Shown here one piece after another: positions 1-62,465 of a stretch of DNA of 64,000 nucleotides. The stretch covers positions 64,967 to 128,966 of IMG/VR virus record IMGVR_UViG_3300042505_000752; one strand, given 5' to 3'. A program made the translations under genes and the position numbers. The stretch comes from a virus. Each line of letters starts with the position of its first letter. The stretch's first letter is position 1. A model generated the notes under the pieces. The model saw only the letters and a list, made by a program, of their open reading frames with translations. It had not been told where the DNA came from and did not search any database.

Positions 1-1866
1 ACAAAAGTTGGCACTGTCAGTTCTGGTTCTGGCGTAGGACAGGCACTACAAGGTGCAGTTTCGTATGTAACTCCTGGTGATGTTAGTGGTGTAACTAGTC
101 CTGTTCGCTCTCGTCTTTACTCTGCCATCACTCCTGGTGGTCGCGGCTTGCGTCCTCGTGTCAATAGACCAAATGAGCGCGGATATCGTTGCCCTGAGGG
201 ATATCAGTTTGGTGGTCGTTTTACTGACTCTAAGTGGTCTACATGCGGACGACAGTTATTTGATATTCCATCACTATCACGGACTTTGCTCCAAATTGCT
301 GATAACGCTATTCGTGCAGGGCGTGGTATTGGATATCAAAATCCCGACACAAATCCACTTGGCGGAGCAGAAGTTACTGGCGTTTCATTGATCCAAAGCC
401 GTATGGCAAATGTTCCTCGTGTTGGTGCTTATGATAAAAAGAAGCGTGACGATGGCTTAAAGGCGGCAATTGACGAGTTAGTCAATCCATTGGCTCCAGC
501 GTCAATGATGATTCGGCGCGATGGTTTCCCAATGCAACCAGTCGTTTCTGCTGGAGAATTACGGAAAGTTCCAGACAATCGCAATATGGAAGGCGCAGTC
601 TTTCTATTGTCTGCATCCAATATTGATTCTTTTGGTGGCGATGAATTGGGTTTATTGTCAAATACTGGCGTGAGCACTTTGATTTATGTTCTACCTAATG
701 GTTCTACTGTTCGTATGGACAAAACCCGTGCGTTAACCGTAGGCGAACGGCGCAAGTTGGGCAAGACTGTCAGTTCGGCATCCAAGATTGACAATAGTAA
801 TGATCCATTGGCTCGTCTAAAAATGGTCATTTCAGACTCTGGTGGCGGAATTTCTATCAACAAAGATTTTTCTAAAATTCGCAATGCTGAAGAAGTTGTT
901 GATTCAGGCAAATTTAAAGGAAAGCCTCGCTGGGTTGCTGAAGCGTTTCGCAATAGTGGCAAAAAGCGTACTGTTTCTCCCCAGTCAATTGTTGATGATT
1001 CCAAGTTGGATTCCGAAACAGAAACTCAGGCAAGTAAAAATATCAATGATGTAGAAACCGCTATTGAACATATAAACAACGGTGGAAATCTTTCTGATAT
1101 TAATCCTGCTATTTTGCCTCAGGCTATTCGTCGTGCAAAAGTTTATCGTCAAAAGAATATTGGATCTGGTCGTATTCTTTTTGAGCGTACTGACGGCGGT
1201 GTTTCTTTTATAGAGGTTTCCAATGGAAAGCGCCTTGAGCATCTTGGTGCCCATTTTTCTGCCGCTATCGCTGAACATCTTGAATTGCCTACTCCTAAAA
1301 TCCGCATCATGGGTGAAGGAGACAATCGTCCTTACCTCGTTCAGAATATTGATACTGTCGTGCCAAATGGCAAATTACAATCTATGAAGTTGACAGATAT
1401 GCCAGCCAAAGACCTTGCTGGTATTTTTGTTTCTGATTACTTGACAGATGTTCGCAAACGAAATCCTTCTACTGTTTCGGCTGTTTCTGCTGATGGTAAA
1501 GTTCGCGCAATTGCAACGATGAATGCCCCCTCATCATTGGCTGGTTTATCTGCTGAAGAAATGATTAAGCGTCGTTCCATTGTTATTGGCGATTGGGCAA
1601 AATCAGATGGAAATAATATCCTAAAAGCCATCCAAAATCGCAATGAAGAAGTTCGTCGTCAAATTCTGGCTGTTTATGAAGATTTAATTCAACGAGCACG
1701 CGCTTTTAAATGGGATTCTTACATTAAGCAACTACGGTTAGACGGTAAACTTTCTAGTGCAGAACAAAAGCATATGGATATTGTGAAATCTCTATATGAC
1801 CAAAGACTAGACAATTTAGCCAAGTCTAAGGAATCTTTTGCTAATATTTTGGAGTTAGGCAAATGA
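1..1866 (+). CDS. 5'-truncated large putative virion protein with RCPxGxQFGG module and degenerate HipA/PI4K-like kinase fold
   Basis: Frame 1 is open from base 1. YRCPEGYQFGGRFTD motif; the C-terminal SDYLTDVRKRNPSTV aligns by eye with LDYVLDNQDRHAGNF of the next gene. Confidence 0.7.
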   Translation, partial: TKVGTVSSGSGVGQALQGAVSYVTPGDVSGVTSPVRSRLYSAITPGGRGLRPRVNRPNERGYRCPEGYQFGGRFTDSKWSTCGRQLFDIPSLSRTLLQIADNAIRAGRGIGYQNPDTNPLGGAEVTGVSLIQSRMANVPRVGAYDKKKRDDGLKAAIDELVNPLAPASMMIRRDGFPMQPVVSAGELRKVPDNRNMEGAVFLLSASNIDSFGGDELGLLSNTGVSTLIYVLPNGSTVRMDKTRALTVGERRKLGKTVSSASKIDNSNDPLARLKMVISDSGGGISINKDFSKIRNAEEVVDSGKFKGKPRWVAEAFRNSGKKRTVSPQSIVDDSKLDSETETQASKNINDVETAIEHINNGGNLSDINPAILPQAIRRAKVYRQKNIGSGRILFERTDGGVSFIEVSNGKRLEHLGAHFSAAIAEHLELPTPKIRIMGEGDNRPYLVQNIDTVVPNGKLQSMKLTDMPAKDLAGIFVSDYLTDVRKRNPSTVSAVSADGKVRAIATMNAPSSLAGLSAEEMIKRRSIVIGDWAKSDGNNILKAIQNRNEEVRRQILAVYEDLIQRARAFKWDSYIKQLRLDGKLSSAEQKHMDIVKSLYDQRLDNLAKSKESFANILELGK

Positions 1867-4800
1867 GTAAAATAGTTCTTATTAAAGACGCAATCAAGGA
1901 TGAGCCATACGCTCTTGTGTCTTACGACTCCATGGAGGTTAAGGCATTTGCGCTAACCGACGATGCCGAAGAATGGTCCGAATGGGCTAATCAGTCATGT
2001 AAAACAATTGACGAGATTCGTGAAAGTCTTACCTATTCACTTCAGACAGAACTCCCACGACCAGCAACTGAAATTGAATTAGATGGAATTAAACAATTCA
2101 CTACATCTGAGCGTTTTATTCAAATTAAGTCTGCAATTAGTGAATCAAAACTTGAAATGGTTGGCACATTTAGCCGTCAGAGTCGTCGCTTTGCCGTAAA
2201 GACATTGAAAGATTCGGAACTTCCAGAAAGTCCATCTTCATTGCCTTTGACTTCTTTTAGTGCTCAAAGTCGGCAGGCAATCATTGAGTACAAGGCATTG
2301 TCTTTTAGGGCTGACAATAAGTTTTCGGCTACAGCATTTGAAGCAAAGGGTGCGCGAGCATTATGGGACCCCGCCCTTGGACCGTCTGGTGGATGGCGAT
2401 GCCCTCAAGGTTCTCAGTTTGGTGGATACATCACTGACCGCTTCGGTCGTGGATGCGGTGGAGGGGTTCTCCGTCGTGTTGGGCGAGCATTAGTTGATGC
2501 AGGTCGTGGAATTGACAAATTGGGCGAGGCACGAGGCGCTCGTCGTCTTGGTCGTGCCGCTGATAAACTCAATGATAAGCCTGGTGGCGGACGCGCTCAG
2601 CGTGCCGTTGGTAATGCGGCTAACGCTCTTGAGCGTGGCGCGCAGGGTCTGGTTGGAGACTACAAGCCTGGTGATGCTGTTTCGCGTCGTCGTGGCGTGT
2701 CTGCCCCAGATATTGCTCCCGAGCGTAAGAAGGAAATTGATGACCGCCTGATGGCTATTCAGGCAGAACTTGATGATCTGGTTGATCAGCCCCCGACTGG
2801 CGATATTGAGAAGCGCATTACAGAACTTACCAATGAAAATAAGAAATTGCGTCGCGAGCGAGATGGCGCAATGCCAAAGCGTGTTTCTGCCGTCAAGCCC
2901 GCTCCATCAAAGCGCCGTGTTGTTAAGCCTGAGGCTGGACGCAATGAGCGAGTTCAAGGCAAGCGCCCTGTAAAGAAGCCAGTTACGCAAGGTCGTCGTC
3001 AGGGCGTTCTAGATCGTGCCGCTCAACGACTCGTTGGGGAATATGACCCATCAGAGTATAAGCCTGGTGACAAAAAGCGCATTAAAGACCGCGAAAATCG
3101 TTACGCAAAAGTTTCTGATGAAGCATTGATTAATGCGCTAAAGATGAACTCGCCCAAGGCTATTAAGCCGGGTCAGAATCGTGACATTGAGGCAAACAAG
3201 CGTCAAGAGCGACTTGAAGTTCTTCAGGAAATGCTCAATCGTGGCATTGATATTCCAGAACAATTTAAGAAAGAAGTCAAGCAGTATCGCTTAAAGCCCC
3301 AGCGTAAAAAGCGTGGTGCTAAGGCTGGTAGTCTCCGTAGTCGTGCCGCCAACGCCCTAGAGCGCGCCGCTCAGCGAGTTCTTGCTGGAGACAAGAATAA
3401 GAAGCGTCGTGACCGTAGTCGTCGTAAGCGTGCCGCTGATGCTTTTGAGCGTGGCGCACAGCGAATTCTTGATGGCAAGAAAAAGCCCAAAAAACAAGAT
3501 AATCGCAAAAAGCCACAACCAAACGGTGGGCTTAACCTACCTGGCGGTGGTCGTGGGATTATTGAACCGCGAGATACTGAAGGTTTGCCAAAACCAGGCA
3601 TGGGGGGTATGCGAAAGCCTGGTGAAGGTCAAATTACTCCTGAAGAACTTCAAGATTTAATAGATAGTAATTTAGGTATTACTGGTCTTTCCGAATTACG
3701 CAAACAGTTCAAAGATTATGACGATGCCCAGATTGACAATTTTTTAAGTCGTTTTGTTAAAGCACGCGAAAAAATGAATAATGATAATCCAGAAAGATTA
3801 AAACTTGACAAGTGGATCATCAATCTTGAAATGGAAAAAACCGCTCGTGAACTTGATCGCCTAAAGAATGGCAAGAGAGAACGAGACAATCAGCGTGTCC
3901 GTGCCCGTCGTGCCGTTACCGCTCAAAGCGCATTTACTCCCATTCGTCGTCCACGCCCAAAGAAAATGAAAGGCGACAAGATTGCTTGGGATGATATGGA
4001 TGCCCAGCAAAAAGCACGGATGCGTAATCGTGCTATCGCTGAACTTGACGACCTTGATGCAAGTTGGCGCAAGCGTCTTGGCTTAAAGAGTAATGAAAAA
4101 CTCACTGACAAGATGATTCGTGACTACATTAAAGAACGCGAGAACAACAAGCCTGGTGCTTACATCGGAGTTCTTAAGGCTAACGCCAATGACTGGGGCG
4201 TTCTCAAGGACTATGCAAATGACCTTGAAAATGGGGATATTCTTAATAATCTTGGTCCCAAGCGACGCAAGACACTCGTTGACGACTTGAACAATGCTTC
4301 TACCCCCAAGCGTGTCAAGACACCAAGTTCACCACGCCCCAAGTCTGCCCCAAGTGCAAAAAAGCGTGATGGTCTAAACGATAATGAAAAGAACCGTCTC
4401 AAAGAACTTGACGGACCTGAATTTGATAACCAAGTAGAAGCATTTGACGAAGCAGAGCGTTTGGCTAAAGCAAATAATGAATCTATGGTTGCGTTTGAAC
4501 AAGATGGAAAATTCCGTGTTGTTAAGGCGCAAGACTTTAACGATCTACTAGATGGTATTGATGATGATAGTCGTATGCAAAATGCGATTGGTAGTGTTCG
4601 CCATTTTGATGCCAATGGCAACGAGAGCAAGATTGATGTTTCCGAGTCTGCTCGCGTTAAGCAATCAATTAAAGAATCACTTGGCATTGATGCTCCAGAA
4701 TCGCTTGGTGGCTCAATACCCGATGATCGGTCACGACGAAATGTGCGTAATCGGTTCCCGAATAATGGACTCCCCGATAAGGCATTCTGGCGAGATAAAG

Positions 4801-7800
4801 ACTGGAAGCCTCGTACTGGTGGAGATGATGCAGAAAAGCATGAGCGTAGGTTTGGTCGCTACTTTGATTCCGACGGAAACATCAATGCTCGTGGTCGCTT
4901 TGTTAATGGTCAGTTAGAACAAGAGCGAGCAGAAAAGGCAAAGCCTAGGTTTAGCAAGACACCAGAATCTGTGATTCCAGAATCTGGTCGTAGAAAAACA
5001 TCTACTTATAGTTTTGGTAAACTTCAAGTTTTTGGCGAGGATAATAACGGAAGAGTTCTTTGGAAGGACAAAGATGGCTTTGTTATCCCTGACAACATCG
5101 TAAATGATGAAGCCGTACGACAACGCTACATGCGTTATGCAAAAGAGGGGCGAGATGCCTATCTAAATGCAGAATTTGCACGAAATCTTGGCAAAAAAAT
5201 TGATGACCTTTTAGTTAATAACGACCCTGAGAAGCGTCGTGAATTAAGGAATAATCTTCAAAATCTTATTGAAGATCGGCGTTTGTTGATTTCACGAGAA
5301 AACCCTGTTGCGGTTCGTGGTTCGTGGGCTGGGGAATTAGTTGCATTGCAAAATATGCTTAATGAGTTGGATTCTCATCCAAACGCAGTAGATATTTCTC
5401 CAATGAAAAATGAAGGACTTGATTCCTTACCCAAGGCTTCTATTAAGCGTCGCGATTCATCCCTTATTAAATTGCCTGAATTTAAAAAAGAAAAAGAAGT
5501 ATTCGTTCAATATTATGACCTTCGTAATGACAGGTTTAAAGCACATCTTGAAAACGACAGGCTTGATGATGCAAATATCATGATTGAAGGACTTGCTAAC
5601 GAAATTGATGGGCATAACAGGATGCTGGCTGACCCTGCAATGCCTGAAGAAGACAGGGTTAAAATTTTAGCGCGCCGTTCAGCCGCTCTTGAAAAAGTAG
5701 GTAAGTTTAACCAAGATTTGCAACTTCGTATGGATGAAATTAATAAACGAATTGGCGCAGAAAACGCTGCACGATGGGGAATCCCAAGACTTATGACCAA
5801 CCCCGAAGGTAACGCAACTCCAGATAGTGCTGAGGCACGACTTGCAATCCTTGGAAATAATTACCAGATTAAATTTGCAAAAAACATTCGTCTTGAAGGA
5901 GCAAAAGACCGCGCTGCGGAACTTGCAAAAGAAAAAAATGATGGCGAAGGAATCTATGTTACAAAAGATATAAAGAGTGGTAAATTCTTTTTATTAACTC
6001 GGGCTGATTTTGAAGAAGCAGTTAAAAACGATGCTTTTTCTGAAAATTATGTTGTTGATGCTGTCGTCTATGCCGCAAAGACCCCAGCGCCACCAAAGCC
6101 TCCTAGCGTTGCAAGAATTCCTGATTTGAATGATCCGTTTGATGGATTTAAATCGCGTTTTAGTCCTATGGATTTTGATGCGGATGATAAAGATAATCCA
6201 ATCAAGGCAGCAAGAAAATATGCTGTTGAATTTGATAGTGATTTTGTAGTTGCACAACGCTTGAATGATGGTAAGCAATTTGTTCTTGATGCCCGTGACT
6301 GGAACGACTTTGTAAACTCTCCAAAAATAAATAGTGATGATTTTGTCGCCGTAGGTATTTTTGGTGGGTATGGCAAAGATACCGATGGAATGCCCAAGTT
6401 AAATGATGGCAAAAAACGACTTATTGACGAAATGCAAAGTAGAGATTTAGGTCGCGTTTTCCCCAAGGGAAATCGTGTTTTTGGTAGTGGTGATAAAAAG
6501 GCAAGAGAACGCGCTCAAAAATTTGCCAAGCAGGGAGCAGATGATGATGGGCGCAATCGTTATGTTATTGATACGGGCAAACAATACATGGTCGTCAGTG
6601 AAAAAGAATATCAAGAACTACTAGCGGAATTTAACAATAATGAACAACGCTTAAACGCGACGCTTTCTCCCGAGAAGTTTATTAGAGAACGAAAAGGCAA
6701 CAATGCAGTAGGTAGGGATGCCCTTCTTGGTCCTCAACAAATGCCAATTGATGCCGACGAGTACAAGGATGCTGTCATTGCGGTGCATGACGGCAATGGT
6801 GCTATTGACCAAATACCTGATGCACTATTTGCTGCTGTTATATTTGACGAGAATCTTGAAGATACTATTCGTCCCGGAAATAGGGTGGCTCCGCAACCAT
6901 TAATAAATGATGACGGCAGTCAAGCCACATTTGAGGATATTTTTAGTGGACGAATGAAACCAGGCTACGGCGCTGAATTTGAAAACAAACGATTTAAATT
7001 TAAAAACTTTAAAGATGCGGGCGATTCATACGGTGGAATTTGGTCAGTATATAGAGTTGAGGACAAGCAGACTGGAGAAATTTGGTTTATTAAATCTTCC
7101 ACATATGGTGCCAATGACGCAATGCTGGAAGATATCGGCATGGAGGCTGCTGGTATTTTTAATTTTGCCGCCAAGAATGATGCAAAGCAAATAAGAATTT
7201 CCGCTCCGATTGCTGTTGAAAAAAATGGCAGGCAAGTCAGATGGACTGCCATGCGCGATATTGATCAATGGGATGCTCCAAATGGTGAGGCTTTAACTTG
7301 GGTAGATGCTGGCGATGGTGGAAATATTCAAGGGCGAAGTGTCAGCCTTGAAGATATGGCTGCCGTTTTAGTTCTTGACTATGTTCTAGATAACCAAGAT
7401 AGGCATGCAGGAAACTTTAAAATTGCGACTGATTCAAATGGCGTTCAGCGTCTAGGTGTCATTGACAATGGGCTAATGTTTGGCGGACGGGCATATGACA
7501 TGCTTCCACTAAGTCACGATGATGAAGTCACTCCAATGGGTCTTAATGAACTTGCCGAACAAAGAAAAGCCTTAGACCTTGAGGGTTACAAAAAAGGTAC
7601 TGGCCATATCTTATTACGGAGTCTACCAAGTACATTTATTGATCGTCTTCGTCAGAGTCAATTTGATAGAGATGAATTTAATCTTCAGGTAAAATACTCA
7701 ATTGAAACAATGCGAGAAAGTATTGACAGAATTCTTGATGAGCAAAGACTAAAGGGTAAGGGCATTTCACTTAGCGGTACAGAACTAGCACATTTAAAGG

Positions 7801-7982
7801 CAATGAAATTAGTTGCTGACGCTCGCTTGAAATATCTTGAATCAAACCCAGATGCATTCCTTGAGGTTTTTAACATAACTGGTTCAATACCTAGTCCAAT
7901 AAATGCCCCAATGTCGCCAATTCGTCGTCCTAGGGGATTAACTGGTCGTCAGGTTGGTTTGCCATCGGGTGGAGGATTATAA
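1863..7982 (+). CDS. 2039-aa multidomain putative virion protein with C-terminal HipA/PI3-4K-like kinase
   Basis: WRCPQGSQFGG module, K/R-rich linker, WFIK...LEDIG...DRHAGN...IDNG kinase motifs. Confidence 0.75.
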   Translation: MSKIVLIKDAIKDEPYALVSYDSMEVKAFALTDDAEEWSEWANQSCKTIDEIRESLTYSLQTELPRPATEIELDGIKQFTTSERFIQIKSAISESKLEMVGTFSRQSRRFAVKTLKDSELPESPSSLPLTSFSAQSRQAIIEYKALSFRADNKFSATAFEAKGARALWDPALGPSGGWRCPQGSQFGGYITDRFGRGCGGGVLRRVGRALVDAGRGIDKLGEARGARRLGRAADKLNDKPGGGRAQRAVGNAANALERGAQGLVGDYKPGDAVSRRRGVSAPDIAPERKKEIDDRLMAIQAELDDLVDQPPTGDIEKRITELTNENKKLRRERDGAMPKRVSAVKPAPSKRRVVKPEAGRNERVQGKRPVKKPVTQGRRQGVLDRAAQRLVGEYDPSEYKPGDKKRIKDRENRYAKVSDEALINALKMNSPKAIKPGQNRDIEANKRQERLEVLQEMLNRGIDIPEQFKKEVKQYRLKPQRKKRGAKAGSLRSRAANALERAAQRVLAGDKNKKRRDRSRRKRAADAFERGAQRILDGKKKPKKQDNRKKPQPNGGLNLPGGGRGIIEPRDTEGLPKPGMGGMRKPGEGQITPEELQDLIDSNLGITGLSELRKQFKDYDDAQIDNFLSRFVKAREKMNNDNPERLKLDKWIINLEMEKTARELDRLKNGKRERDNQRVRARRAVTAQSAFTPIRRPRPKKMKGDKIAWDDMDAQQKARMRNRAIAELDDLDASWRKRLGLKSNEKLTDKMIRDYIKERENNKPGAYIGVLKANANDWGVLKDYANDLENGDILNNLGPKRRKTLVDDLNNASTPKRVKTPSSPRPKSAPSAKKRDGLNDNEKNRLKELDGPEFDNQVEAFDEAERLAKANNESMVAFEQDGKFRVVKAQDFNDLLDGIDDDSRMQNAIGSVRHFDANGNESKIDVSESARVKQSIKESLGIDAPESLGGSIPDDRSRRNVRNRFPNNGLPDKAFWRDKDWKPRTGGDDAEKHERRFGRYFDSDGNINARGRFVNGQLEQERAEKAKPRFSKTPESVIPESGRRKTSTYSFGKLQVFGEDNNGRVLWKDKDGFVIPDNIVNDEAVRQRYMRYAKEGRDAYLNAEFARNLGKKIDDLLVNNDPEKRRELRNNLQNLIEDRRLLISRENPVAVRGSWAGELVALQNMLNELDSHPNAVDISPMKNEGLDSLPKASIKRRDSSLIKLPEFKKEKEVFVQYYDLRNDRFKAHLENDRLDDANIMIEGLANEIDGHNRMLADPAMPEEDRVKILARRSAALEKVGKFNQDLQLRMDEINKRIGAENAARWGIPRLMTNPEGNATPDSAEARLAILGNNYQIKFAKNIRLEGAKDRAAELAKEKNDGEGIYVTKDIKSGKFFLLTRADFEEAVKNDAFSENYVVDAVVYAAKTPAPPKPPSVARIPDLNDPFDGFKSRFSPMDFDADDKDNPIKAARKYAVEFDSDFVVAQRLNDGKQFVLDARDWNDFVNSPKINSDDFVAVGIFGGYGKDTDGMPKLNDGKKRLIDEMQSRDLGRVFPKGNRVFGSGDKKARERAQKFAKQGADDDGRNRYVIDTGKQYMVVSEKEYQELLAEFNNNEQRLNATLSPEKFIRERKGNNAVGRDALLGPQQMPIDADEYKDAVIAVHDGNGAIDQIPDALFAAVIFDENLEDTIRPGNRVAPQPLINDDGSQATFEDIFSGRMKPGYGAEFENKRFKFKNFKDAGDSYGGIWSVYRVEDKQTGEIWFIKSSTYGANDAMLEDIGMEAAGIFNFAAKNDAKQIRISAPIAVEKNGRQVRWTAMRDIDQWDAPNGEALTWVDAGDGGNIQGRSVSLEDMAAVLVLDYVLDNQDRHAGNFKIATDSNGVQRLGVIDNGLMFGGRAYDMLPLSHDDEVTPMGLNELAEQRKALDLEGYKKGTGHILLRSLPSTFIDRLRQSQFDRDEFNLQVKYSIETMRESIDRILDEQRLKGKGISLSGTELAHLKAMKLVADARLKYLESNPDAFLEVFNITGSIPSPINAPMSPIRRPRGLTGRQVGLPSGGGL

Positions 7983-7983
7983 A

Positions 7984-8325
7984 ATGGAACAAGATATTCA
8001 AAGAACAGAAAAATCGTTAAAAGATTTAAAAAAGGAAATTACATATCCTGCCGTTATTTACCATGAATCAGAAGCGGGAAATATTGCTCCAATTTTAGTA
8101 CTTGAACGAAAAGGCAGAATTACTCATTATTTTTGGGATGATGTAAATCGCTATGATTCTGATATGTACAATGTTGTTGGCGATATTGTAAAACTATCTA
8201 CAAATTCACAGTCAACGGCAAAGCAATTCTTTATTGACAATGCCACTCCTGTAGATATTAATAGAGTTATAGATCAGGCTAAGAAAAATAAGATAGTCAA
8301 ACCAGAACCTAAAGGCAAAAAATAA
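7984..8325 (+). CDS. small protein, candidate kinase partner/immunity protein
   Basis: GGAGGA RBS at 7971-7976; ATG 1 nt after the upstream stop. Confidence 0.7.
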   Translation: MEQDIQRTEKSLKDLKKEITYPAVIYHESEAGNIAPILVLERKGRITHYFWDDVNRYDSDMYNVVGDIVKLSTNSQSTAKQFFIDNATPVDINRVIDQAKKNKIVKPEPKGKK

Positions 8326-8327
8326 AA

Positions 8328-11300
8328 ATGACTACCGATTGCGAAACTTGTCGTCCTCTTGTAAAGGTCATGAACCCCCAGATGTCTACTGACCGCAGGC
8401 GGTTTATGATTGAGAGCAAGGCTGCCGAATATCGCAAACACATGGGTCAGCCGAGCGGTTTGTTGCAAAAGGGTGCTCGGGCAATATTTGACCCTAAACT
8501 TGGTCCGTCTGGTGGATATCGCTGTCCTGAAGGGAGCCAGTTTGGTGGTTACATTACCGACCGCTTCGGCAGAGGCTGTGGTGGGGGTATTATTCGCCGT
8601 GTCGGGCGAGCCTTTGGAAAACTAGGTCGTGGATTAGATAACATTGCAGACAGGCGTGACCGTAGTCGTTTGGGTCGTGCCGTCAATCGCCGTAGCAAGC
8701 CCAATCGCGTTACTCGCGCCGCTGGTGCTCTAGAGCGTGGAGCACAAAGACTTGTTGGCGAATACAAGCCTGGTGACTACAAACCAGGTGACGGCGGTCG
8801 TCGTAATAGGCGCAACCTACCTGGTGGATCATCCCTGAGGCGTTCTGCTGTTCCACGCAAACCTAAGCGTGAACGCAAACTGCCCAAAGACGGGGACAAG
8901 AAGCCTCGCACCCAAGGGGCAACTCCCAAAAAGCGCCCCATTGTTGAACGCGCTGCTGAAGGTCTAGAACGCGCTGCTCAGCGTGTTCTAGATGAAGATC
9001 GCAAGAAAAGAACACAAGGCGCTAAGCCTGCCAAACCCAAGAAGCCTGTTGCTCCTAAGGTTCCTTCGCTGAAGCCAAATCTCTCAGAAGATAAAAAACC
9101 AAACATCACTGACATCAATGATATTGACTGGGATAATTTAACTCCCGAACAGCGTGACGAAATTCAAGGCATCCGTTGGGATGCTTTTAGTGAACTTGAA
9201 GCCGAAATGTCCAAGTACATGGGTGTTCCAGCGGCTCGTATGGACCCTGATGGGTTTGTAAAACGAAATGAAAAAAATAAAAATGTTGAAAAATATGCAG
9301 GGGATGCTCGTAAGTGGAGACAATTACAAAACGACTTTGAAGATATGCCAGCAGAAGCAATTAAAGAGATTGACTGGACCGACGAAGAACGCAAGAAAAT
9401 TCTTGATGTCGTTAATGGGAATGCAAAGCCCAAGAAGCCCAAGACCCGTGGTGCTGACTTCTGGGAACGACGCAAGAATAACAAGCCGATTAAGCCTGAA
9501 GAATTAGATGTTGAAGATGCCCCAGAGATTTTTTCAAGCAAGCCAGACGGCGTACCCGAAAGTGCTCGTAATGTTAAGGCTTGGGAGCAGGCGTTTAAGG
9601 ATGAAATAGATAAGTATTTTGCTGAAAAAAATGTAGATCGCCTTGAAAAATTAAAAAAGACAATAGATTTGATTCTTAACAAAGATGTCATGAATCTATC
9701 TTCTGCTATGCGTCGGATGCTTCAGGAAAAAATTAATGACATAGAGAAAAAGACTGTTGCCCTTCGTGCACGAAAAGCACGAGGTGCACGCACTGCCACA
9801 CCAAAACCAAAACTTCCTAGTCTTGTAGGTAAGCCAGTAAAGCGTAATCCAAAAATTAATCGTATTAAAGATAATGTTATTGATGCTTTGCGTATCAACA
9901 ATATGCGTGACAATGCCATGGGCGACTTTGCACGCGACGCAATTGGCGATGGCTTAATTGCTTTTCCTGAGAATATTTTTAATGATGACATCAAAAATGT
10001 GACAGATGCAGTGAAGTGGCTTGATGATGGAAAATCATTATACGAAATTCCACAACATTATTGGGCTGAAGCAATAAATGAACATGTAGACAGTCGTAAT
10101 CCTGGTCCAAAGCAATATAAAAGAATTGATATCAATAATCCAGGTGCTATGAAATCTATTAACATGTATGAAAAATTAAATCAAGATGGCAGTGGTAGTG
10201 GGACTGGTGTTGTTTTTGCTCGTGCTCCAGGTAATGCACGGGATGGCATGGGCGAAGTTTTAGGTCAGCAAGTCCTCAATGCCCTTGGCATGAATGTTGC
10301 TCCAGCGCGGTTTGATGGAATTGTAAGAGAACAAAATAATGGCAGAGATGTACCAGTTGCTGTAATGCCATTTGCTTGGAACAGGGCTGCTGCTGGAAAA
10401 ATAGACCGAGGTAAGGCTGGTTATAACTTTGACAGGTCTGTCTTTGACCAATTTGAAGATAAAGCGTTACCTATGCGGTTAGCAAATTTATTAGGTAATT
10501 ATTTTATGGGAATTAGCGACAGGCACCACAATAATGGGATGGCAGGGGTTATTGATGGTCAGCCTTATATTGTCCCTATTGACCTTGGGTGGAACGGCAT
10601 AAAAAGAAAATTTTACGAGTATCAAGGCGATGATTGGCTTCATGGATTTTCAATGGACCCCGACTTGGTTGGCGTTATTAAGTCTCATTTAGCAAAACTT
10701 GAACCCAAAGAGGCTGAAAAACAACGCAATAAAATAATTGAAGTTTTTGATGGCATGATCTTACGAGGCGATGCAATACTTGCTCAAGGAAAAGATAAAT
10801 TTATTGAGGATGCCATAGGAATGATGCATCTTGGTGCTGATGCAGTGCCAAATATGCAAATGCGTAATGGAGTTGACAGAAAAGAACTTGAATCTATGAT
10901 GAAAGAAAAAGCATTAGGCATATTTACTGCTATGGAATCCAATATTGCATCATTGAAAAAAGAAAGAACAGATTTATTTGCTAAATGGGGATTAAAAAAT
11001 GCTCCCCCATTAGGAGTTCTTGAAGTAGTTAGCAAACCAAAGCCAAAAAACCCCAAGGCACCTAAGCCAAAAGCGCCCGCCCCTGCAAAGATTACCAATA
11101 ATGTGGCTTCAAAGGGTAAGAAAATTGGACCGCTCCCAGCACTTGTTGTAGCAGAACCACAAAAACGATACAACAAGGTTCCTGTACTTGGTAAAGCATC
11201 TGGAGACAATCCCCTACCAATTCCAGATGACATTGTTAATTCTGAAATTACAAACTTGGATGACGCAGTTAGATGGCTTGATGAGGGTAATCGTATTTCT

Positions 11301-12308
11301 CAAGTTCCTCAAAAGTTTTGGGCGCAAGCCATAAACGGTCATGTTGATGGAAATGCACCCAATAAACAATTTACTCGCCTTGCACAACAAGGTGGAATTA
11401 TAAAAATGACGCAAATTTTTGGTGCTCTTGATAACGATGGTAATTTTGTAAATCAGGGATTCTTATTGCAATACGATGGTGATGACCCCAAAAACGCTGT
11501 TGAGGTTTTTGCTCTTAACATTATGCATGGGCTTGGATTAAATGTTGAGCCTGCACGCTTTGACGGAGTTTTTAGACCTGACGAAGTTCCAGTTGCAGTT
11601 ATGCCATTTGCTTGGAACAACGCACCAGAAGGTGATGTTGTTCTTCCAAAAGATTTACCCCAGTGGGATGTAAATCGTTCTGATATTTATGTTGATGAAG
11701 ACTATATTCCAAATTTTGAACATCAACAATTTGACAATTTGCCAGACAAGGCATACCCGCAAAGAATTGCCGCAATGATAGGTAACTTCATTTTGCAAAT
11801 TCCAGATAGACATAATCAAAACGGCATGGGGGGAATGTTTGGTGGCAAGCCCCATGTTGTTCCAATTGACTTAGGTTGGGCTGGAAAAAATGGATATATT
11901 GGAAATATGAACATGTTCTTTTCACAACAATTCAAAATTGATAGGACTTTTGATGCGGACAACGGAGACATGGAGCCAGATTTCCGTAAAAATATTTCAA
12001 ATCATTGGTCATCAATAAGTGATGATGCCGAAAGAGTTAGACAACAAAAAGTTATTGTTGATCTTTATGATGACATGATCGCTCGTGGAAAAGCAATGAC
12101 TCAAGATAAAGATAAATTCATTAATGACCTGTTAATTGGACTTCACGATGCAGGAAATAACGCAATAATTAGAAACAAAGCAGAACAAGAAGCAAGAAAT
12201 ATGCTCAAGATGATGATGAGGTCAATTGCTAATATGGAAAGCGAAAGAGATAATTACCTTAAAAGTATTTTTAGTATTGATGAAGCCGTTATAAAAGGTG
12301 GTGCATGA
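8328..12308 (+). CDS. 1326-aa putative virion protein with two tandem HipA/PI3-4K-like kinase-fold domains
   Basis: YRCPEGSQFGG module; DRHHNN...IDLG and DRHNQN...IDLG. Confidence 0.75.
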   Translation: MTTDCETCRPLVKVMNPQMSTDRRRFMIESKAAEYRKHMGQPSGLLQKGARAIFDPKLGPSGGYRCPEGSQFGGYITDRFGRGCGGGIIRRVGRAFGKLGRGLDNIADRRDRSRLGRAVNRRSKPNRVTRAAGALERGAQRLVGEYKPGDYKPGDGGRRNRRNLPGGSSLRRSAVPRKPKRERKLPKDGDKKPRTQGATPKKRPIVERAAEGLERAAQRVLDEDRKKRTQGAKPAKPKKPVAPKVPSLKPNLSEDKKPNITDINDIDWDNLTPEQRDEIQGIRWDAFSELEAEMSKYMGVPAARMDPDGFVKRNEKNKNVEKYAGDARKWRQLQNDFEDMPAEAIKEIDWTDEERKKILDVVNGNAKPKKPKTRGADFWERRKNNKPIKPEELDVEDAPEIFSSKPDGVPESARNVKAWEQAFKDEIDKYFAEKNVDRLEKLKKTIDLILNKDVMNLSSAMRRMLQEKINDIEKKTVALRARKARGARTATPKPKLPSLVGKPVKRNPKINRIKDNVIDALRINNMRDNAMGDFARDAIGDGLIAFPENIFNDDIKNVTDAVKWLDDGKSLYEIPQHYWAEAINEHVDSRNPGPKQYKRIDINNPGAMKSINMYEKLNQDGSGSGTGVVFARAPGNARDGMGEVLGQQVLNALGMNVAPARFDGIVREQNNGRDVPVAVMPFAWNRAAAGKIDRGKAGYNFDRSVFDQFEDKALPMRLANLLGNYFMGISDRHHNNGMAGVIDGQPYIVPIDLGWNGIKRKFYEYQGDDWLHGFSMDPDLVGVIKSHLAKLEPKEAEKQRNKIIEVFDGMILRGDAILAQGKDKFIEDAIGMMHLGADAVPNMQMRNGVDRKELESMMKEKALGIFTAMESNIASLKKERTDLFAKWGLKNAPPLGVLEVVSKPKPKNPKAPKPKAPAPAKITNNVASKGKKIGPLPALVVAEPQKRYNKVPVLGKASGDNPLPIPDDIVNSEITNLDDAVRWLDEGNRISQVPQKFWAQAINGHVDGNAPNKQFTRLAQQGGIIKMTQIFGALDNDGNFVNQGFLLQYDGDDPKNAVEVFALNIMHGLGLNVEPARFDGVFRPDEVPVAVMPFAWNNAPEGDVVLPKDLPQWDVNRSDIYVDEDYIPNFEHQQFDNLPDKAYPQRIAAMIGNFILQIPDRHNQNGMGGMFGGKPHVVPIDLGWAGKNGYIGNMNMFFSQQFKIDRTFDADNGDMEPDFRKNISNHWSSISDDAERVRQQKVIVDLYDDMIARGKAMTQDKDKFINDLLIGLHDAGNNAIIRNKAEQEARNMLKMMMRSIANMESERDNYLKSIFSIDEAVIKGGA

Positions 12309-13030: not shown

Positions 13031-16000
13031 ATGGCAAAGATGCGCGCGTCATCCAAAGAAGATGCAATGAAGATTGCACGCTATGTTGGATGTTCTGGCG
13101 CACACCAAGATAAGAAGGGGAATTGGATACCTTGTGCCAATCCCGAAGATCTTGTAGAGATTCTAGATAAATCTGCAAGAAACTCTACTGAAAAATTAAC
13201 TAAAAAGAAGCGTCGTCGGTTTGTTAATGGTCAATGGGAAAGACTCGGAGAACGAGGTCCTATCAGTATTGACACAATTGACGGCGGTGGACTTGTGTCT
13301 GGTATGGGCAAGTCCTTGACTCAATGGTTTAAAGAAGAATGGGTTGATATTTCAAGACCCAAAAAAGGTGGCGGTTTTGAGCCGTGCGGACGAGATGATG
13401 CAGACAAGGGCAAATACCCCAAGTGCGTTCCAGCATCACGAGCCAGCAATATGTCAGAAGAAGAAATTCGCTCTGCTGTTTCACGGAAAAGAAGAGCAGA
13501 ATCTACACAGAGTAGAGATGACAAAAAGCCTATTTATGTTCCTACTGATAAAAAGAACGACCCATTCGTTTTGGATGAAAAATCAGCAACACCCACAAAT
13601 CCAGAACTTTATGCACGGGTTAAGGCTGAAGCAAAAAAGAAGTTTGATGTTTACCCCTCTGCCTATGCAAACGCTTGGTTAGTAAGGGAATACAAAAAAC
13701 GAGGTGGTGGATATCGTTCTGAAAAAGCAGACGATGGCGATTATGAAGAATCTGTTGAAGATCTTACCGAAATGCAATTATCCGATTTTATTGATTGGGT
13801 AGATCAAAAAGAAAAAGCAGAAAAAGTATGCCCTCCAGCAACTTCTGACATTGGCTTAAATATCAAGAATCGTCAGAATGCCATCAATACTGCTGGTTAT
13901 GGTCCCCTAAACCCGAAAGAACCCAATGTGGACTTTTGGGAAAAGAAGGCAAAACGCTGGTCCGTAACGATTGAAGAATCCAAGAAACAAAAGTGCGGAA
14001 ACTGTGCTGTCTTTATTAAGACTCCTCGGATTCTTGAATGCATTGAGTCAGGTCTTGGTAATGAGGCTGGAGACACTGCTTGGGATGCAATCAATGCTGG
14101 CGACCTTGGATATTGCGAGGCATTTGACTTCAAGTGTGCTTCTGCCCGTACCTGTGATGCATGGGTCGGTGGAGGTCCAGTAACTGTTGAAAAGGGCAAG
14201 CAAGAGGAGAAGGCAGAAACTTCCACGATTATCATTGGTCGTGCCAAGCCTCGCATTGGCGATCCTGATGTTTACACCGACCCCAACTCTGCTCGTCTGC
14301 GTTCTCGTAAACTTGGTTGCATTGGTATCGCTCGTAGAGAAACGCCAGATGGAGAAGTTGTCTGGACACCCTGCACAAATATCTCAGATCAACGCAGATA
14401 CCAAGGCGAAACACCATTAGGTCAGCGAGATGAGGCTCGGCGTTTTGCTGACAGACTTGCTGAAGTTGGCGGTCCTGATCGTAAGCGCCGACGCATGCGT
14501 AAGTATAAGAGCCTTGAATTTGCAACAGACATTAAGGCATTTCGGACCTTAGGTTCAAGTATGAATAGTCGCGGCATTAGCGGTAATTGTCGCCAATTTA
14601 CTGGCATTGATGGTGACGGAGATGGATTCGTATGTAATCCCGCAACTCGCGAGGACGACTTGCCCCTTACGGACACTCGGAAAATTTTTAAGCGTGGCGG
14701 TAAAATGCTGTCAAGGGAAGAATTGGTAGAGCAAGACGAAACAATGCTTAATATGTTTGCCAAAGGTGAACCTTTATCGCGAATTGCTGAAGAAGTAGGT
14801 CTTGACAAAAGAGAAGTTGAATTTTTAATTAAAAATTTCCGTAAACAACAACCAAAAGTTGCATTTACAATATTCAACAATCGCGATATCAATATTCAAA
14901 AAAAACGCGAAGAGCGCAGAAAATTAGCGCTTGAGAATGTTAGGCGAGAGGCAAATGCCAACCGCAAATTAAATGCAAGAGGCGAAGACCCTACGCCAGA
15001 ATCTGATGATGATCTTGATTTTACTCTTGACCCAGATAAGGTTCCGCAATATCTTAAAAAGAATTTTGCTAAATATATGCAACGCTTAAAAGACCCTGAA
15101 TTTGCTGATGAAATAAAAAAAATTGCTGATGATTTGCGTGCTGGTCTTGGTTTGGCTGGAACGGCAAAAAAATACAAACGAGACTCAGCATTTATAGAAA
15201 TTGTTCGTAGAAATGAAAAAATTACAAAAACAAAAAAACTACAAAGAGAACTCCTAGGCGTTCCTGATTTTAACAATGATACCGATGACCCCGATTTCAC
15301 TCTTGACCCCGACAAAGTTCCAAAATTTTTACAAAGGAATTTGCTTAACAATATTAGGATAGCAAGAAGTCCTGAGTTTGCGGAAGAAAGAAAGAAAATT
15401 GCTGACGACTTACGCCTTGGTCTTGGAATTGCTTCCGTAAGATTGAAATACAAACGAGACTCGGCATTTGTAGACATAGTTCGCAGGCTTGAAAAAATTC
15501 CAAAATCAAGAGAAAACAAAAAAGTTGATCCTAAAATTAGACAGGATGTTGTTGACCTTGTAGATAAATTGATTAAAGATGATAATCCATTCATGTCGGT
15601 TGCCGAAATCGCAAAAGAATTTAAAATTACTGGAATAGATGCGCGTCGGATTATTAATGCTGCAAAATTGGAAAAATATTTTGATTTGCACAATAAATAT
15701 ACAGACGCAAAAAGAAAAAAACTTTTTGCTGAAGTTGCTGAACTTCATAAACTTGATCTTACATATGATGAAATTGGCAAGCGTTTAGGAATTAGTGAAA
15801 ACTCAGTAAATCACATTGCGAAAAAAATGAAACTACCTAAAAGAAAGTTTGTGACAAAACGGAATGTTCCTCAAGTAATAAGGAGGGGTGGTGATGTAAT
15901 TCCTCGTTCTTTAGCAATGAAACAAAATAAAGAAATGCTTGATCTATATGAGCGAGGCTGGTCTATTACGGATATTGCTAAAAAAATGGGAATTGGTGTT

Positions 16001-16273
16001 GCTACTGTAAAACAAATTCTTATAAAATTTGAAAAAGATAACAAAGTTCGCCTTCGTGGAAATAATGTTATTGAAAAAGAAAATCAAATAAGAAAACTTC
16101 TAAAAGAAGGTTTGCATCCTCGCGAGATTATGCGAGACATTATTGGCAATATTCCGTATGGCAGAATTTTAGAAATTGCAAAAGAAGAGGATATTGAAAT
16201 CCCATCTATGCGTAAATTTAAATCCGACAATCAAAACTTCAATTCATTTGAGAACGATGATTATTTTTACTAA
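13031..16273 (+). CDS. modular head-region polyprotein (Cys-rich modules, DUF5872-like module, HTH array)
   Basis: Two GCxG...WxPC modules, NPELYARVKAEAK...GGGY, CGNC...C...C module, several HTH-like segments. Confidence 0.65.
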   Translation: MAKMRASSKEDAMKIARYVGCSGAHQDKKGNWIPCANPEDLVEILDKSARNSTEKLTKKKRRRFVNGQWERLGERGPISIDTIDGGGLVSGMGKSLTQWFKEEWVDISRPKKGGGFEPCGRDDADKGKYPKCVPASRASNMSEEEIRSAVSRKRRAESTQSRDDKKPIYVPTDKKNDPFVLDEKSATPTNPELYARVKAEAKKKFDVYPSAYANAWLVREYKKRGGGYRSEKADDGDYEESVEDLTEMQLSDFIDWVDQKEKAEKVCPPATSDIGLNIKNRQNAINTAGYGPLNPKEPNVDFWEKKAKRWSVTIEESKKQKCGNCAVFIKTPRILECIESGLGNEAGDTAWDAINAGDLGYCEAFDFKCASARTCDAWVGGGPVTVEKGKQEEKAETSTIIIGRAKPRIGDPDVYTDPNSARLRSRKLGCIGIARRETPDGEVVWTPCTNISDQRRYQGETPLGQRDEARRFADRLAEVGGPDRKRRRMRKYKSLEFATDIKAFRTLGSSMNSRGISGNCRQFTGIDGDGDGFVCNPATREDDLPLTDTRKIFKRGGKMLSREELVEQDETMLNMFAKGEPLSRIAEEVGLDKREVEFLIKNFRKQQPKVAFTIFNNRDINIQKKREERRKLALENVRREANANRKLNARGEDPTPESDDDLDFTLDPDKVPQYLKKNFAKYMQRLKDPEFADEIKKIADDLRAGLGLAGTAKKYKRDSAFIEIVRRNEKITKTKKLQRELLGVPDFNNDTDDPDFTLDPDKVPKFLQRNLLNNIRIARSPEFAEERKKIADDLRLGLGIASVRLKYKRDSAFVDIVRRLEKIPKSRENKKVDPKIRQDVVDLVDKLIKDDNPFMSVAEIAKEFKITGIDARRIINAAKLEKYFDLHNKYTDAKRKKLFAEVAELHKLDLTYDEIGKRLGISENSVNHIAKKMKLPKRKFVTKRNVPQVIRRGGDVIPRSLAMKQNKEMLDLYERGWSITDIAKKMGIGVATVKQILIKFEKDNKVRLRGNNVIEKENQIRKLLKEGLHPREIMRDIIGNIPYGRILEIAKEEDIEIPSMRKFKSDNQNFNSFENDDYFY

Positions 16274-36543: not shown

Positions 36544-36855
36544 AGTTGTCCTTTTCCGTAGTAGTGGCTTACCAGATAAGTATAGCAGATATGTGTAACA
36601 ATTACAACATCTAAATAGATATTTATTAGATTTTTTTTGCGCCGTAACTTATAGGACAAGTATAGCAGATGAGTGTAACAATTACAACCTATTTATAGAT
36701 AAAGTTATCCACAGACTTATCCACAGGCAAAAAATAGGGGGTCATCCGCCACCGTACGAAAAAGAGACACACAGTCCCGTGCCCCAAATCGGGGAGCGGG
36801 GCTATCAACCTTATTGACAAATTCTGTCAATACTTGCAAGCATTAGCCCCGCAAC

Positions 36856-36869
36856 CGAACTAATGTTCG
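36856..36869. promoter_or_regulatory. LexA-type SOS box
   Basis: CGAAC-TAAT-GTTCG, 4 nt before the ATG at 36874. Confidence 0.65.
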
Positions 36870-41045: not shown

Positions 41046-41240
41046 TGGCGAGTCCCACTGCTGAAAGGCGGTGGGACAACCACTTAGTCCCGCTTGGGCA
41101 GTCTCATCCGCCACCGTCATTCATTGGGAGCGCGCGTGCGGGGCTATCTCGGTATCCCCCACCCCTGAAGCCCCGTACCCCCCAAAAATTTCTGGGGGTT
41201 TTCCACAGGCTGGGGATAACCTGTGGATAACTTTGATCCG

Positions 41241-42331: not shown

Positions 42332-42691
42332 GAGCGCAGGGCGGGGGAGGGAAACCTCCCCCAAGACCCTGTGGATAACCTTTATCCACAGCCTGTGGAT
42401 AAACCTGTGGATAACTTTCCCGATAGCCCCGTATATAAAGTGCGGGTGCGGGACTGTCACGATAAATAGTCGTGGAAATTCTTGAATTGAAAAAGCGGTG
42501 CGGGGCTAACAAACTAAATAGCAGGGGTCAAGCCCCTGCCACACTAGTCACTCGGTCCACGAGAACCCGCAGATCCAGCAGAATGTCTGTCATTTTGCCC
42601 GCTTCGGCAATGTTCACTCCCCGCAAATCACGGAGAGTGTCGTCAATGAGATTATAAATCTCCTCGGTTGGCGTGAGTAAATTTAACTCGC

Positions 42692-50093: not shown

Positions 50094-50432
50094 ATGTCTC
50101 CTTTAGTAGTGGTTTTTCCTTACCTAGTAAGTATACACCTAGGGTGTAGCACTTACACCCTTATTTGTGTTACAGAATGGTTACAGATTTATGACGGAAA
50201 TGTAATGGAGAGCCAAAATGCCGATATGGGCAATGTGTCACCATTACACCCTAGAACGCTCTCTAAGCGCCTGACCCCCCTCTCCGCCCCTAGCACCTAT
50301 TCTTGAGCCTGAAACGGCTCAGAGACGATTTCCACAGATTTATACACAGCCTCTGAGCAGGGGAAATGTGGCAAAACCCCAGCGTGAGGGCACTTTTTAC
50401 ATAACCCCTGCTAGTTGGCTTACACACGGTGG

Positions 50433-50771
50433 TTATCCACAGAAGTGACCACTTACCACCAGATTTCACCAGTAGTTATCCACAGGGGTGTGTATAAAGT
50501 TGGGGATAAGGTTATCCACAGGATATCCACAGGGTGTGGATAAAGTAGTTGTACAGTACAAGTAAGTTATCCACAGGGTTGTGGATAAAGTTATCCACAG
50601 GGTGTGGATAAAGGTGTGGATAAAGTTTTCCACAGGGTGTGGATAAACCTGTGGAAAAGATAGTTGTAGTCTACAAGTAAGTTTTCCACAGGTTGTGGAT
50701 AAAGTTGTGGATAAAGTAGTTGTAGTATACAAGTAAGTTATCAACAGGGCTGTGGATAAAGTTGTGGATAA
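50433..50771. promoter_or_regulatory. DnaA-box array (oriC-like or titration locus)
   Basis: 14 exact TTATCCACA (both orientations) plus 7 single-base variants in about 340 bp. Confidence 0.88.
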
Positions 50772-51004
50772 CTTTTCGCTCTGTAAAAAATTCTCTTCCG
50801 CCACCGTCAAAGTTTTAGAAACGAGGGGGCGGGGCTAGTCCCCTACTAATAAGAAGTGAAAAATCTGAACTTATAAAAAAAGCATTAGCCCCGTTTGTTT
50901 TTTCAAGAAGCATTAGCCCCGTTTGACTTTTGAGTTTTCCACAGGTTTTTCCACAGGCTGTGGATAAAGGGGGTAGGGTTTAACCCCCACCCCCACTTGG
51001 TCAC

Positions 51005-51235
51005 TCAGTAGAAATCGGCAGGGGCACAGAAGTGGTCGGCAACACTGCCCTGAATGACATACTCATGAAGTAGTTCGGCGTACTCATCAGACTCTAGGTA
51101 CTCCGCACGAGTCATGCCCGTCTCAACATGAACCCAATTCTCATCAAACATTTCCTCAAACATTGTGGTATCGGGGTAGCGACTCGTGATGTACTCAAGG
51201 TCTGACTCGTAGTAGTTCATATTATATCGTGCCAT
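51005..51235 (-). CDS. acidic Tyr-rich cassette gene
   Basis: Cassette leader. Confidence 0.7.
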   Translation of the reverse strand: MARYNMNYYESDLEYITSRYPDTTMFEEMFDENWVHVETGMTRAEYLESDEYAELLHEYVIQGSVADHFCAPADFY

Positions 51236-51694: not shown

Positions 51695-51873
51695 AAGATG
51701 GGCGGGGGGCGAAAGCCCCCACTTGCCCACAGGGTTTTCCACAGGGGTGTGGATAACTTTGCGCGAAAAATCCGTGCGGGGCTAAGGGCTTGCCGACGCT
51801 CCCGCTAGCCCCGTTGCCTCAAAATCTGGCGGACTCGCGATATGGACAGAACCCCGCAGGGCTTAGCGCCCCC

Positions 51874-52510: not shown

Positions 52511-52676
52511 CGAACAGGTGTTCGCACGGAGACACCGAACAAGTGTTCCCCGAACAAGTGTTCCCCGAACGGGTGTTCGTACCGAACGAATGTTCTCCGA
52601 ACAAGTGTTCGCATTATAAAAATACGCACCGACGCATAAAAATACACCGAACAGATGTTCTACGAACAGGTGTTCG
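52511..52676. promoter_or_regulatory. array of 8 LexA-type SOS boxes
   Basis: CGAAC-N4-GTTC with GAAC at 52512, 52537, 52552, 52567, 52584, 52599, 52649, 52664. Confidence 0.82.
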
Positions 52677-62308: not shown

Positions 62309-62465
62309 TTCTTCGCTATCTACCGATAGCCCCGTACTCGCCACATACTCGGATTTTTTTATGACGGACTTTTACATACTCGGATTTTTTCAGTACGGGC
62401 TTTTATGCGAAAAAAAAGTTATCCACAGGCTGTTGATAAACCTGTGGATAACTCTCATTGCTAGA

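Follow-up and report, generated by a model that had tools for sequence, protein, structure and literature searches.

The window, i.e., the whole 64,000-nucleotide stretch of DNA that was analyzed, is the second half of a 128,966-bp IMG/VR virus record (G000) that originates from lake-water metagenomes. The ends of the record overlap by 193 bp, which gives a complete circular map of approximately 128.8 kb; CheckV rates the genome at 87% despite the overlapping ends. The phage carries the myovirus genes for tail sheath, tape measure, baseplate J, terminase, portal, and capsid, and a nucleotide search against isolated phages returned no match. Two WhiB genes and two DUF732 proteins are encoded, and the terminase and helicase have relatives, as distant protein matches, in Gordonia and Arthrobacter phages. 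These features indicate an actinobacterial host.

Genes associated with DNA replication and metabolism include a T7 gp4-like primase-helicase, ThyX, ribonucleotide reductase, a single-strand DNA-binding protein, and an SNF2 helicase. Six-frame family searches of the phage identified neither DnaA nor a DnaA-type DNA-binding domain, and among the ORFs scanned there was no initiator, partition protein, integrase, or rep gene. Six-frame searches of the closed genome, that of a 129-kb lytic-looking myovirus, also gave no family A, B, or C DNA polymerase (PolA, PolB, Pol III alpha). Within the head-gene block, a 1080-aa protein (window 13031-16273, plus strand) contains several helix-turn-helix (HTH) and sigma-70 region 4-like domains and could be a packaged DNA-binding protein.

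Transcription of the early region is organized in cassettes. The window contains 24 near-identical cassette promoters between 33819 and 61817 with the consensus GTTGTAAT-N-TTACAC-N7-TG-N-TATACT, which are followed by an ACTACTA leader and an AAGGA ribosome-binding site and mostly drive single small genes. An earlier note on this DNA placed a cluster of DnaA boxes in a phage early region, and rightly so, as the array occupies a gap of approximately 810 bp, which is bordered on the right by the terminator-like hairpin of gene 51005-51235 and on the left by the following cassette promoter (Table 1). This gap is probably not transcribed and is the largest untranscribed one near the point of transcription divergence, which lies 0.5-2 kb away. 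A generic sigma-70 scan revealed no promoter within the island, Rfam no RNA family in the window, and no IHF-type site is recognizable in the array. An ORF spanning the array (50466-50810) was rejected as a real gene, given that it consists of translated boxes and that a 22-bp indel in the related genome G001 would break its frame.

Table 1. Positions of the DnaA-box clusters, LexA-type boxes, and neighboring elements (window coordinates unless stated otherwise).
Feature	Position	Strand	Remarks
Tandem DnaA-box pair	36705..36725	+	18 bp upstream of cassette promoter at 36687; LexA box at 36856
Head-to-head DnaA-box pair	41199..41230	.	
Four-box DnaA cluster	42370..42414	.	TAGCCCCG 18 bp past edge
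Next cassette promoter, GTGTAA-N17-TATACT	50130..50158	-	275 bp beyond array; left island border
Outlying degenerate boxes (ATTTCCACA, TTATACACA)	50328..50348	+	Left of array; box scan
Main DnaA-box array	50433..50771	.	21 boxes on both strands; mostly three-box modules
Spacer palindrome 1	50549..50561	.	TTGTAC-A-GTACAA; 23-bp spacer, flanking boxes face away from each other
Spacer palindrome 2	50664..50676	.	TTGTAG-T-CTACAA; paired changes keep palindromy
Spacer palindrome 3	50720..50732	.	TTGTA-GTA-TACAA; lost with 21 bp in 92%-identical G001
CGGGGCTA motif	50830..50837	+	67 bp past right-hand edge box
AT-rich, low-stability tract	50843..50882	.	Between main array and three-box satellite
Two 27-nt direct repeats	50877..50931	.	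Each with TAGCCCCG (reverse of CGGGGCTA)
Satellite three-box module (+)(+)(-)	50935..50967	.	Three perfect boxes, directly after terminator; missed by the earlier note
Intrinsic-terminator-like hairpin, gene 51005-51235	50969..50994	-	10-bp stem, then UUUAU; right island border
Head-to-head DnaA-box pair	51735..51756	.	Followed by two CGGGGCTA motifs
LexA-type array, eight CGAAC-N4-GTTC boxes	52511..52676	.	Within 165 bp, upstream of SNF2 helicase gene
Head-to-head DnaA-box pair	62419..62451	.	
Second-largest cluster	genome 318-470		About ten co-oriented TGTGGATAA-type boxes; adjoins window end on the circle
Composite islands	L198:2918-3169, 5112-5267; L180:9632-9797; L170:4841-5030, 9812-9960		

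The claimed content of about 21 boxes (14 perfect and 7 variant) in 340 bp proved exact on recount. Fourteen copies of TTATCCACA and three of TTTTCCACA make 17 perfect TT[A/T]TCCACA boxes, where approximately 0.005 would be expected by chance in 339 bp, and four one-mismatch boxes (TTATACACA, TTATCCCCA, ATATCCACA, and TTATCAACA) occur once each. The looser pattern TTWTNCACA has 41 matches in the window against 7.5 expected, a number reached in none of 100 shuffles. Within blocks, the boxes start 11-13 bp from each other and tend to be connected in a three-box module, (+)NNN(-)NNN(-) or its mirror image, with 3-bp spacers and two of the boxes facing each other. Five such modules lie in the main array and one more in the satellite. 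The edge boxes of the array point inward, and any “spreading” side has a box facing it 3 bp away.

The “roughly three repeats” of the earlier note are real: Tandem Repeats Finder returned periods of 114 (2.0 copies) and 56 (4.2 copies), and three 32-bp gaps (start to start, corresponding to 23-bp spacers) each bear a palindrome. The palindrome, TTGTA-N3-TACAA, is found three times in the array (0.1 expected) and is absent from the rest of the window, and these copies could be candidate sites for a second factor. When read on the minus strand (ACTTGTAC...ACAACTACT), the palindromic spacers resemble the cassette-promoter leader.

The assignment of these sites to DnaA holds for both the motif and its degenerate position. 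Among the clustered boxes (172 boxes from 17 phage loci), position 3 is A more often than T and T more often than G, and never C; position 3 is the known degenerate position of DnaA boxes. At least 120 bacterial genomes contain the exact three-box module, most of them from Rubrobacter-like Actinomycetota or Clostridia, and in three of the five genomes checked it flanks dnaA, which implies that chromosomes truly use it as a unit for DnaA binding. At the highest density among the chromosomal loci retrieved, 18 boxes occupy 400 bp, compared to 17 perfect boxes in 340 bp in the phage.

These observations bear on the idea that the boxes are ordinary iterons bound by a phage-encoded protein, such as an HTH protein beside the primase-helicase or the 1080-aa multi-HTH head protein. 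Several HTH proteins are encoded by the phage, and P4-type primase-helicases, which bind their own iterons, provide a precedent. Against this, motif and variable position match the DnaA box exactly, the module also occurs beside bacterial dnaA, and the phage has no DnaA-type DNA-binding domain in the six-frame searches. We regard a phage-encoded binder as the least probable of the explanations considered, and a very improbable one.

Strain comparison supports the idea that the box sequences matter to the phage. G001 (IMGVR_UViG_3300042484_001840) has approximately 92% nucleotide identity to G000 and shares its clusters. In the aligned DNA up to 200 bp around them, 6 of 312 box sites differ between the two genomes (1.9%), compared to 188 of 3081 other sites (6.1%); boxes thus change threefold less than their flanks (Fisher p = 0.0012), so the box positions are under purifying selection and hence functional. 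Given this selection, engagement of host DnaA is the natural reading of the array and, at the level of sequence, well supported. Whole array units have been lost in G001 through 22-bp and 21-bp deletions, which, together with the few box substitutions, indicates that box sequence is constrained while box number is flexible.

In a third variant, from other lake samples, the length of the array is unchanged and six substitutions occur in it, two of them in boxes, of which one falls on the free N of TT(A/T)TNCACA. With 6 changes in the 339-bp array and 20 in 1547 bp of flanks, the array as a whole is no more conserved there than its surroundings. The G001 assembly has 11.3-kb duplicated ends (1-11341 and 133702-145042, 99.6% identity) in the tail-fiber region, probably representing an assembly overlap of a circular map and not a true terminal repeat.

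Boxes are not limited to the main array. Of 39 perfect boxes in the genome, 37 fall in eight clusters across the 27-kb early region, where six smaller DnaA-box clusters lie away from the main array and its satellite. No 10- to 14-mers are more frequent in the genome than words of the GTTATCCACAG type, and the genome word-frequency count gave no second iteron family. The motif CGGGGCTA is confined to the early region, where both strands carry it, with 27 genome copies, 26 of them in the window (31183-62334; 0.75 expected) and the other at genome position 490. Of 13 DnaA-cluster edges, 7 have the motif no more than 100 bp away, and it is not located within obvious hairpins. LexA-type boxes are also enriched, with 16 strand-hits in the window against 0.5 expected. 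Besides the array, which separates the SNF2 helicase gene from a cassette promoter on the minus strand, single LexA-type boxes are present at 36856, 57208, and 58433.

More than 498 relatives of the SNF2 helicase, which is encoded 2 kb from the array, were found in metagenomes from freshwater and estuaries. Perfect boxes at the loci of these relatives reach eight times the chance level and occur as 12-bp-spaced pairs and as clusters. For 27 relatives, the sequence extends 4 kb or more upstream of the helicase; of these, 15 lack boxes in that region and only 6 carry at least three. Next to the helicase in the relatives, no homologues of the small genes that border the array were found, which gives no support to synteny of the array slot. 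A terminase search gave no kinship with five other IMG/VR contigs bearing the three-box module.

Loci L198 (17 boxes) and L180, from the relatives, and L170, on a separate contig, have DnaA boxes that abut LexA-type boxes. In these composite islands, runs of LexA boxes adjoin runs of co-oriented DnaA boxes at a junction ...GTTC|TGTGGATAA, and the islands often terminate in CTTTT...AAAA(C/G)TTGACAA. The L198 array and the array described here have a spacer segment ...TACAAGTAAG-TTATCCACA in common, which implies that the L198 and phage modules are homologous. The comparison shows the array to belong to a wider set of host-regulator box islands in the phage family.

One explanation of such islands is that they are regulatory inputs, where DnaA and LexA boxes would report the replication and damage state of the host, or a roadblock or insulator between cassettes; the array would then time the early-to-middle switch. 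In line with this, the divergent promoter regions of L198, L180, and L170 have DnaA boxes directly beside LexA boxes, the tandem pair at 36705 lies close to both a promoter and a LexA box, and the second-largest cluster, which has CGGGGCTA behind it, starts approximately 30 bp upstream of a promoter on the minus strand. The bacterial three-box module is likewise found in dnaA upstream regions. Promoter-adjacent boxes are, however, seen only at these two small clusters (36705 and genome 318-470); the main array is located behind a terminator and far from the next promoter, and only 3 of the 24 cassette promoters have boxes within 300 bp upstream. Furthermore, 21 sites far exceed the needs of any known operator. 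A regulatory role for the main array is unlikely in our estimation, if less so than a phage-encoded binder.

The main rival explanation is a host-DnaA-dependent origin or a site of host-replisome recruitment. DnaA on the array would load the host helicase, or aid the T7 gp4-like primase-helicase, at the AT-rich tract, after which host polymerase would copy the phage. The missing genes for DnaA, PolA, PolB, and Pol III alpha in a complete genome fit this proposal, as do the presence of a primase-helicase and a single-strand DNA-binding protein, the single iteron array type in the genome, and the position in the largest untranscribed gap near the transcription divergence. The tract, which has boxes on both sides, ranks within the lowest 1.6% of 40-mers in the genome for duplex stability. 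The earlier note had seen no clear adjacent AT-rich unwinding element and missed the tract. The origin reading also agrees with the occurrence of the three-box module beside dnaA in bacteria.

An origin would be expected to carry an unwinding module. In the basal unwinding system, tandem boxes are followed by a GC-rich 4-mer, then by (C/T)T(A/T) repeats, and finally by AT-rich DNA (PMC8287927). The defining feature is a run of three or more DnaA-trios (NAN, consensus 3'-GAT-5') no further than 16 bp 3' of a box in TTATCCACA orientation. A stricter box-plus-trio pattern matched 42 times in the correct orientation among the 120 bacterial loci listed, compared to 7, 1, and 3 times in the control orientations. 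Rubrobacter-like origins, including L025, L027, and L042, show a regular TTATCCACA-(T)ATCCACA-GGCC-(TTA)4-5 followed by AT-rich DNA, and this unwinding module lies a few kilobases from the three-box module.

In the phage, a genome-wide scan identified no DnaA-trio tract beside any cluster, the stricter pattern had zero matches in any orientation, and no box appears to have a GC-rich spacer leading into AT-rich DNA on its correct flank. The low-stability tract, 72 bp from the array, is on the side of both flanking box pairs where unwinding would not be expected. The array thus shares with oriC and the basal unwinding system (PMC8287927) the 9-bp consensus, here as a cluster of 21 boxes in 339 bp, and the 3-bp-spaced three-box module known beside dnaA in Rubrobacter-like actinobacteria and Clostridia. 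It differs from oriC in having no trio tract, apparently no GC-rich spacer with AT-rich DNA beyond it on the correct side, no linkage to dnaA/dnaN, and boxes that point inward. An inflection of skew at the array, which the earlier note had proposed as a check, was not seen in cumulative GC or AT skew, as the curves follow gene orientation.

Other observations also speak against an origin. The boxes are spread across eight loci, 15 of the 27 relatives have none in the comparable region, whole array units change between close strains, and interleaving with LexA boxes would not be expected. The missing unwinding module, the inward boxes, the dispersal, the patchy distribution among relatives, and the LexA pairing together disfavor a copied oriC and favor a platform that holds DnaA, and the interleaving of DnaA and LexA boxes in L198, L180, and L170 likewise points to a protein-binding platform. 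We consider an origin or recruitment site rather unlikely, though it is a stronger candidate than regulatory input. The earlier note's preference for a sink over an origin mimic stands, and the missing DnaA-trio module is a stronger reason for it than the lack of a clear AT-rich element given there, as an AT-rich tract is present.

Some mobile elements use host DnaA. The iteron origins of P1 (oriR), pSC101, F, and RK2 have one to five DnaA boxes beside Rep iterons and a rep gene, and DnaA acts at the pR promoter of phage lambda. The array resembles these in being part of a mobile element that would use host DnaA via consensus boxes, but unlike the iteron origins, it has neither a rep gene among the ORFs scanned nor, by the word-frequency count, a further iteron family.

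Chromosomal sites for titration or inactivation of DnaA are represented by datA in E. coli and the DnaA-box clusters in B. subtilis (PMC4585315, PMC12371093). Like the array, they have high-affinity boxes outside the origin and are proposed to hold or inactivate DnaA, and the array shares with a datA-like sink the presence of several boxes outside an origin with no unwinding module. By analogy, datA-type sites may be the closest match for how the array works. They differ in that datA is chromosomal with about five boxes and an IHF site, whereas the phage array has 21-27 boxes, is viral, and multiplies with the phage genome.

A phage counterpart is the injection-stop (iss) region of T5-like phages, which is untranslated and repeat-rich and contains eight DnaA boxes (Davison, bioRxiv 10.1101/866236). 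The role proposed for these boxes is to hold the DNA at membrane-associated DnaA (bioRxiv 10.1101/866236). Both systems belong to lytic phages and consist of an untranslated, palindrome-rich region with box pairs 3 bp apart, including the variants TTATCAACA and TTATCCCCA, and the function is putative in both. In T5, the eight boxes form two inverted-repeat modules with 52-bp spacers in the terminal repeat, the part of the DNA that is first to enter the cell, whereas the array has 21 boxes in three-box modules, 23-bp palindromic spacers, and seven further clusters, in an unrelated family with an actinobacterial host.

If the analogy held, the array would tether or pause incoming or replicating phage DNA at membrane-associated DnaA. 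The untranslated and palindrome-rich character of the island, with its 3-bp-spaced pairs, agrees with such a tether. The T5 model is itself a bare proposal, however, the circular assembly leaves no genome end or terminal repeat that could be placed, and terminal-repeat modules with 52-bp spacers are absent, the boxes being dispersed instead. We find a tether improbable, and well below regulatory input in likelihood.

The reading we prefer, tentatively and at somewhat less than even odds, is that the array is a non-unwinding, high-capacity dock or sink for host DnaA. Each three-box module would hold three DnaA molecules via the DNA-binding domain, and the island of approximately 640 bp would hold about 27. 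With boxes facing each other at 3 bp and no trio on the spreading side, DnaA would be kept on the DNA without unwinding it. Five small genomes of the same phylum contain 9-56 perfect boxes each, which is about the level of a reversed-pattern control. One phage genome, with its 39 perfect boxes, is comparable to such a whole small actinobacterial chromosome and would thus roughly double the high-affinity sites of the cell. As the phage multiplies, its sites would outnumber those of the host and drain free DnaA, which may block new rounds of host chromosome replication and shift DnaA-controlled genes. The host replisome and nucleotides would then be left to a phage without a DNA polymerase of its own. 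DnaA binding, DnaA titration, and a benefit to the phage are each inferred here.

Several points weigh against a dock or sink. The likely hosts are small, slow-growing lake actinobacteria that initiate replication rarely, and blocking initiation may gain the phage little. The phage also needs an origin somewhere; no other iteron family was found, and the island is the largest untranscribed gap near the divergence point and has an AT-rich tract. In addition, the overall conservation of the array in the third variant is no higher than that of the flanks. A phage-borne DnaA sink has no proven precedent, and the literature on phage DnaA sinks and actinophage DnaA boxes yielded only the T5 preprint and one Ori-Finder prediction. 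What is distinctive here is the box density, the selection test, the clean negative for an unwinding module, and the composite DnaA/LexA islands.

A broader form of the sink proposal is that freshwater actinobacterial phages carry “decoy DNA”, where islands of perfect DnaA and LexA sites, often adjoining and joined by CGGGGCTA as a third conserved motif, would increase in number along with the phage genome and soak up both regulators. We think this doubtful, at perhaps one chance in four; if true, such islands would turn host initiation off and the damage response on without any phage protein.

If the island were instead an origin, DnaA would start replication there without the supposedly ancestral unwinding module. 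If the arrays do capture DnaA, nature would have provided a test of the titration model of replication control, which has long been debated, and for this test the 340-bp array, the natural unit-deletion variants, and relatives with and without arrays provide material. Host takeover by phages is normally credited to proteins. Should arrays of sites alone capture DnaA, and possibly LexA, takeover would here be coded purely in non-coding DNA.
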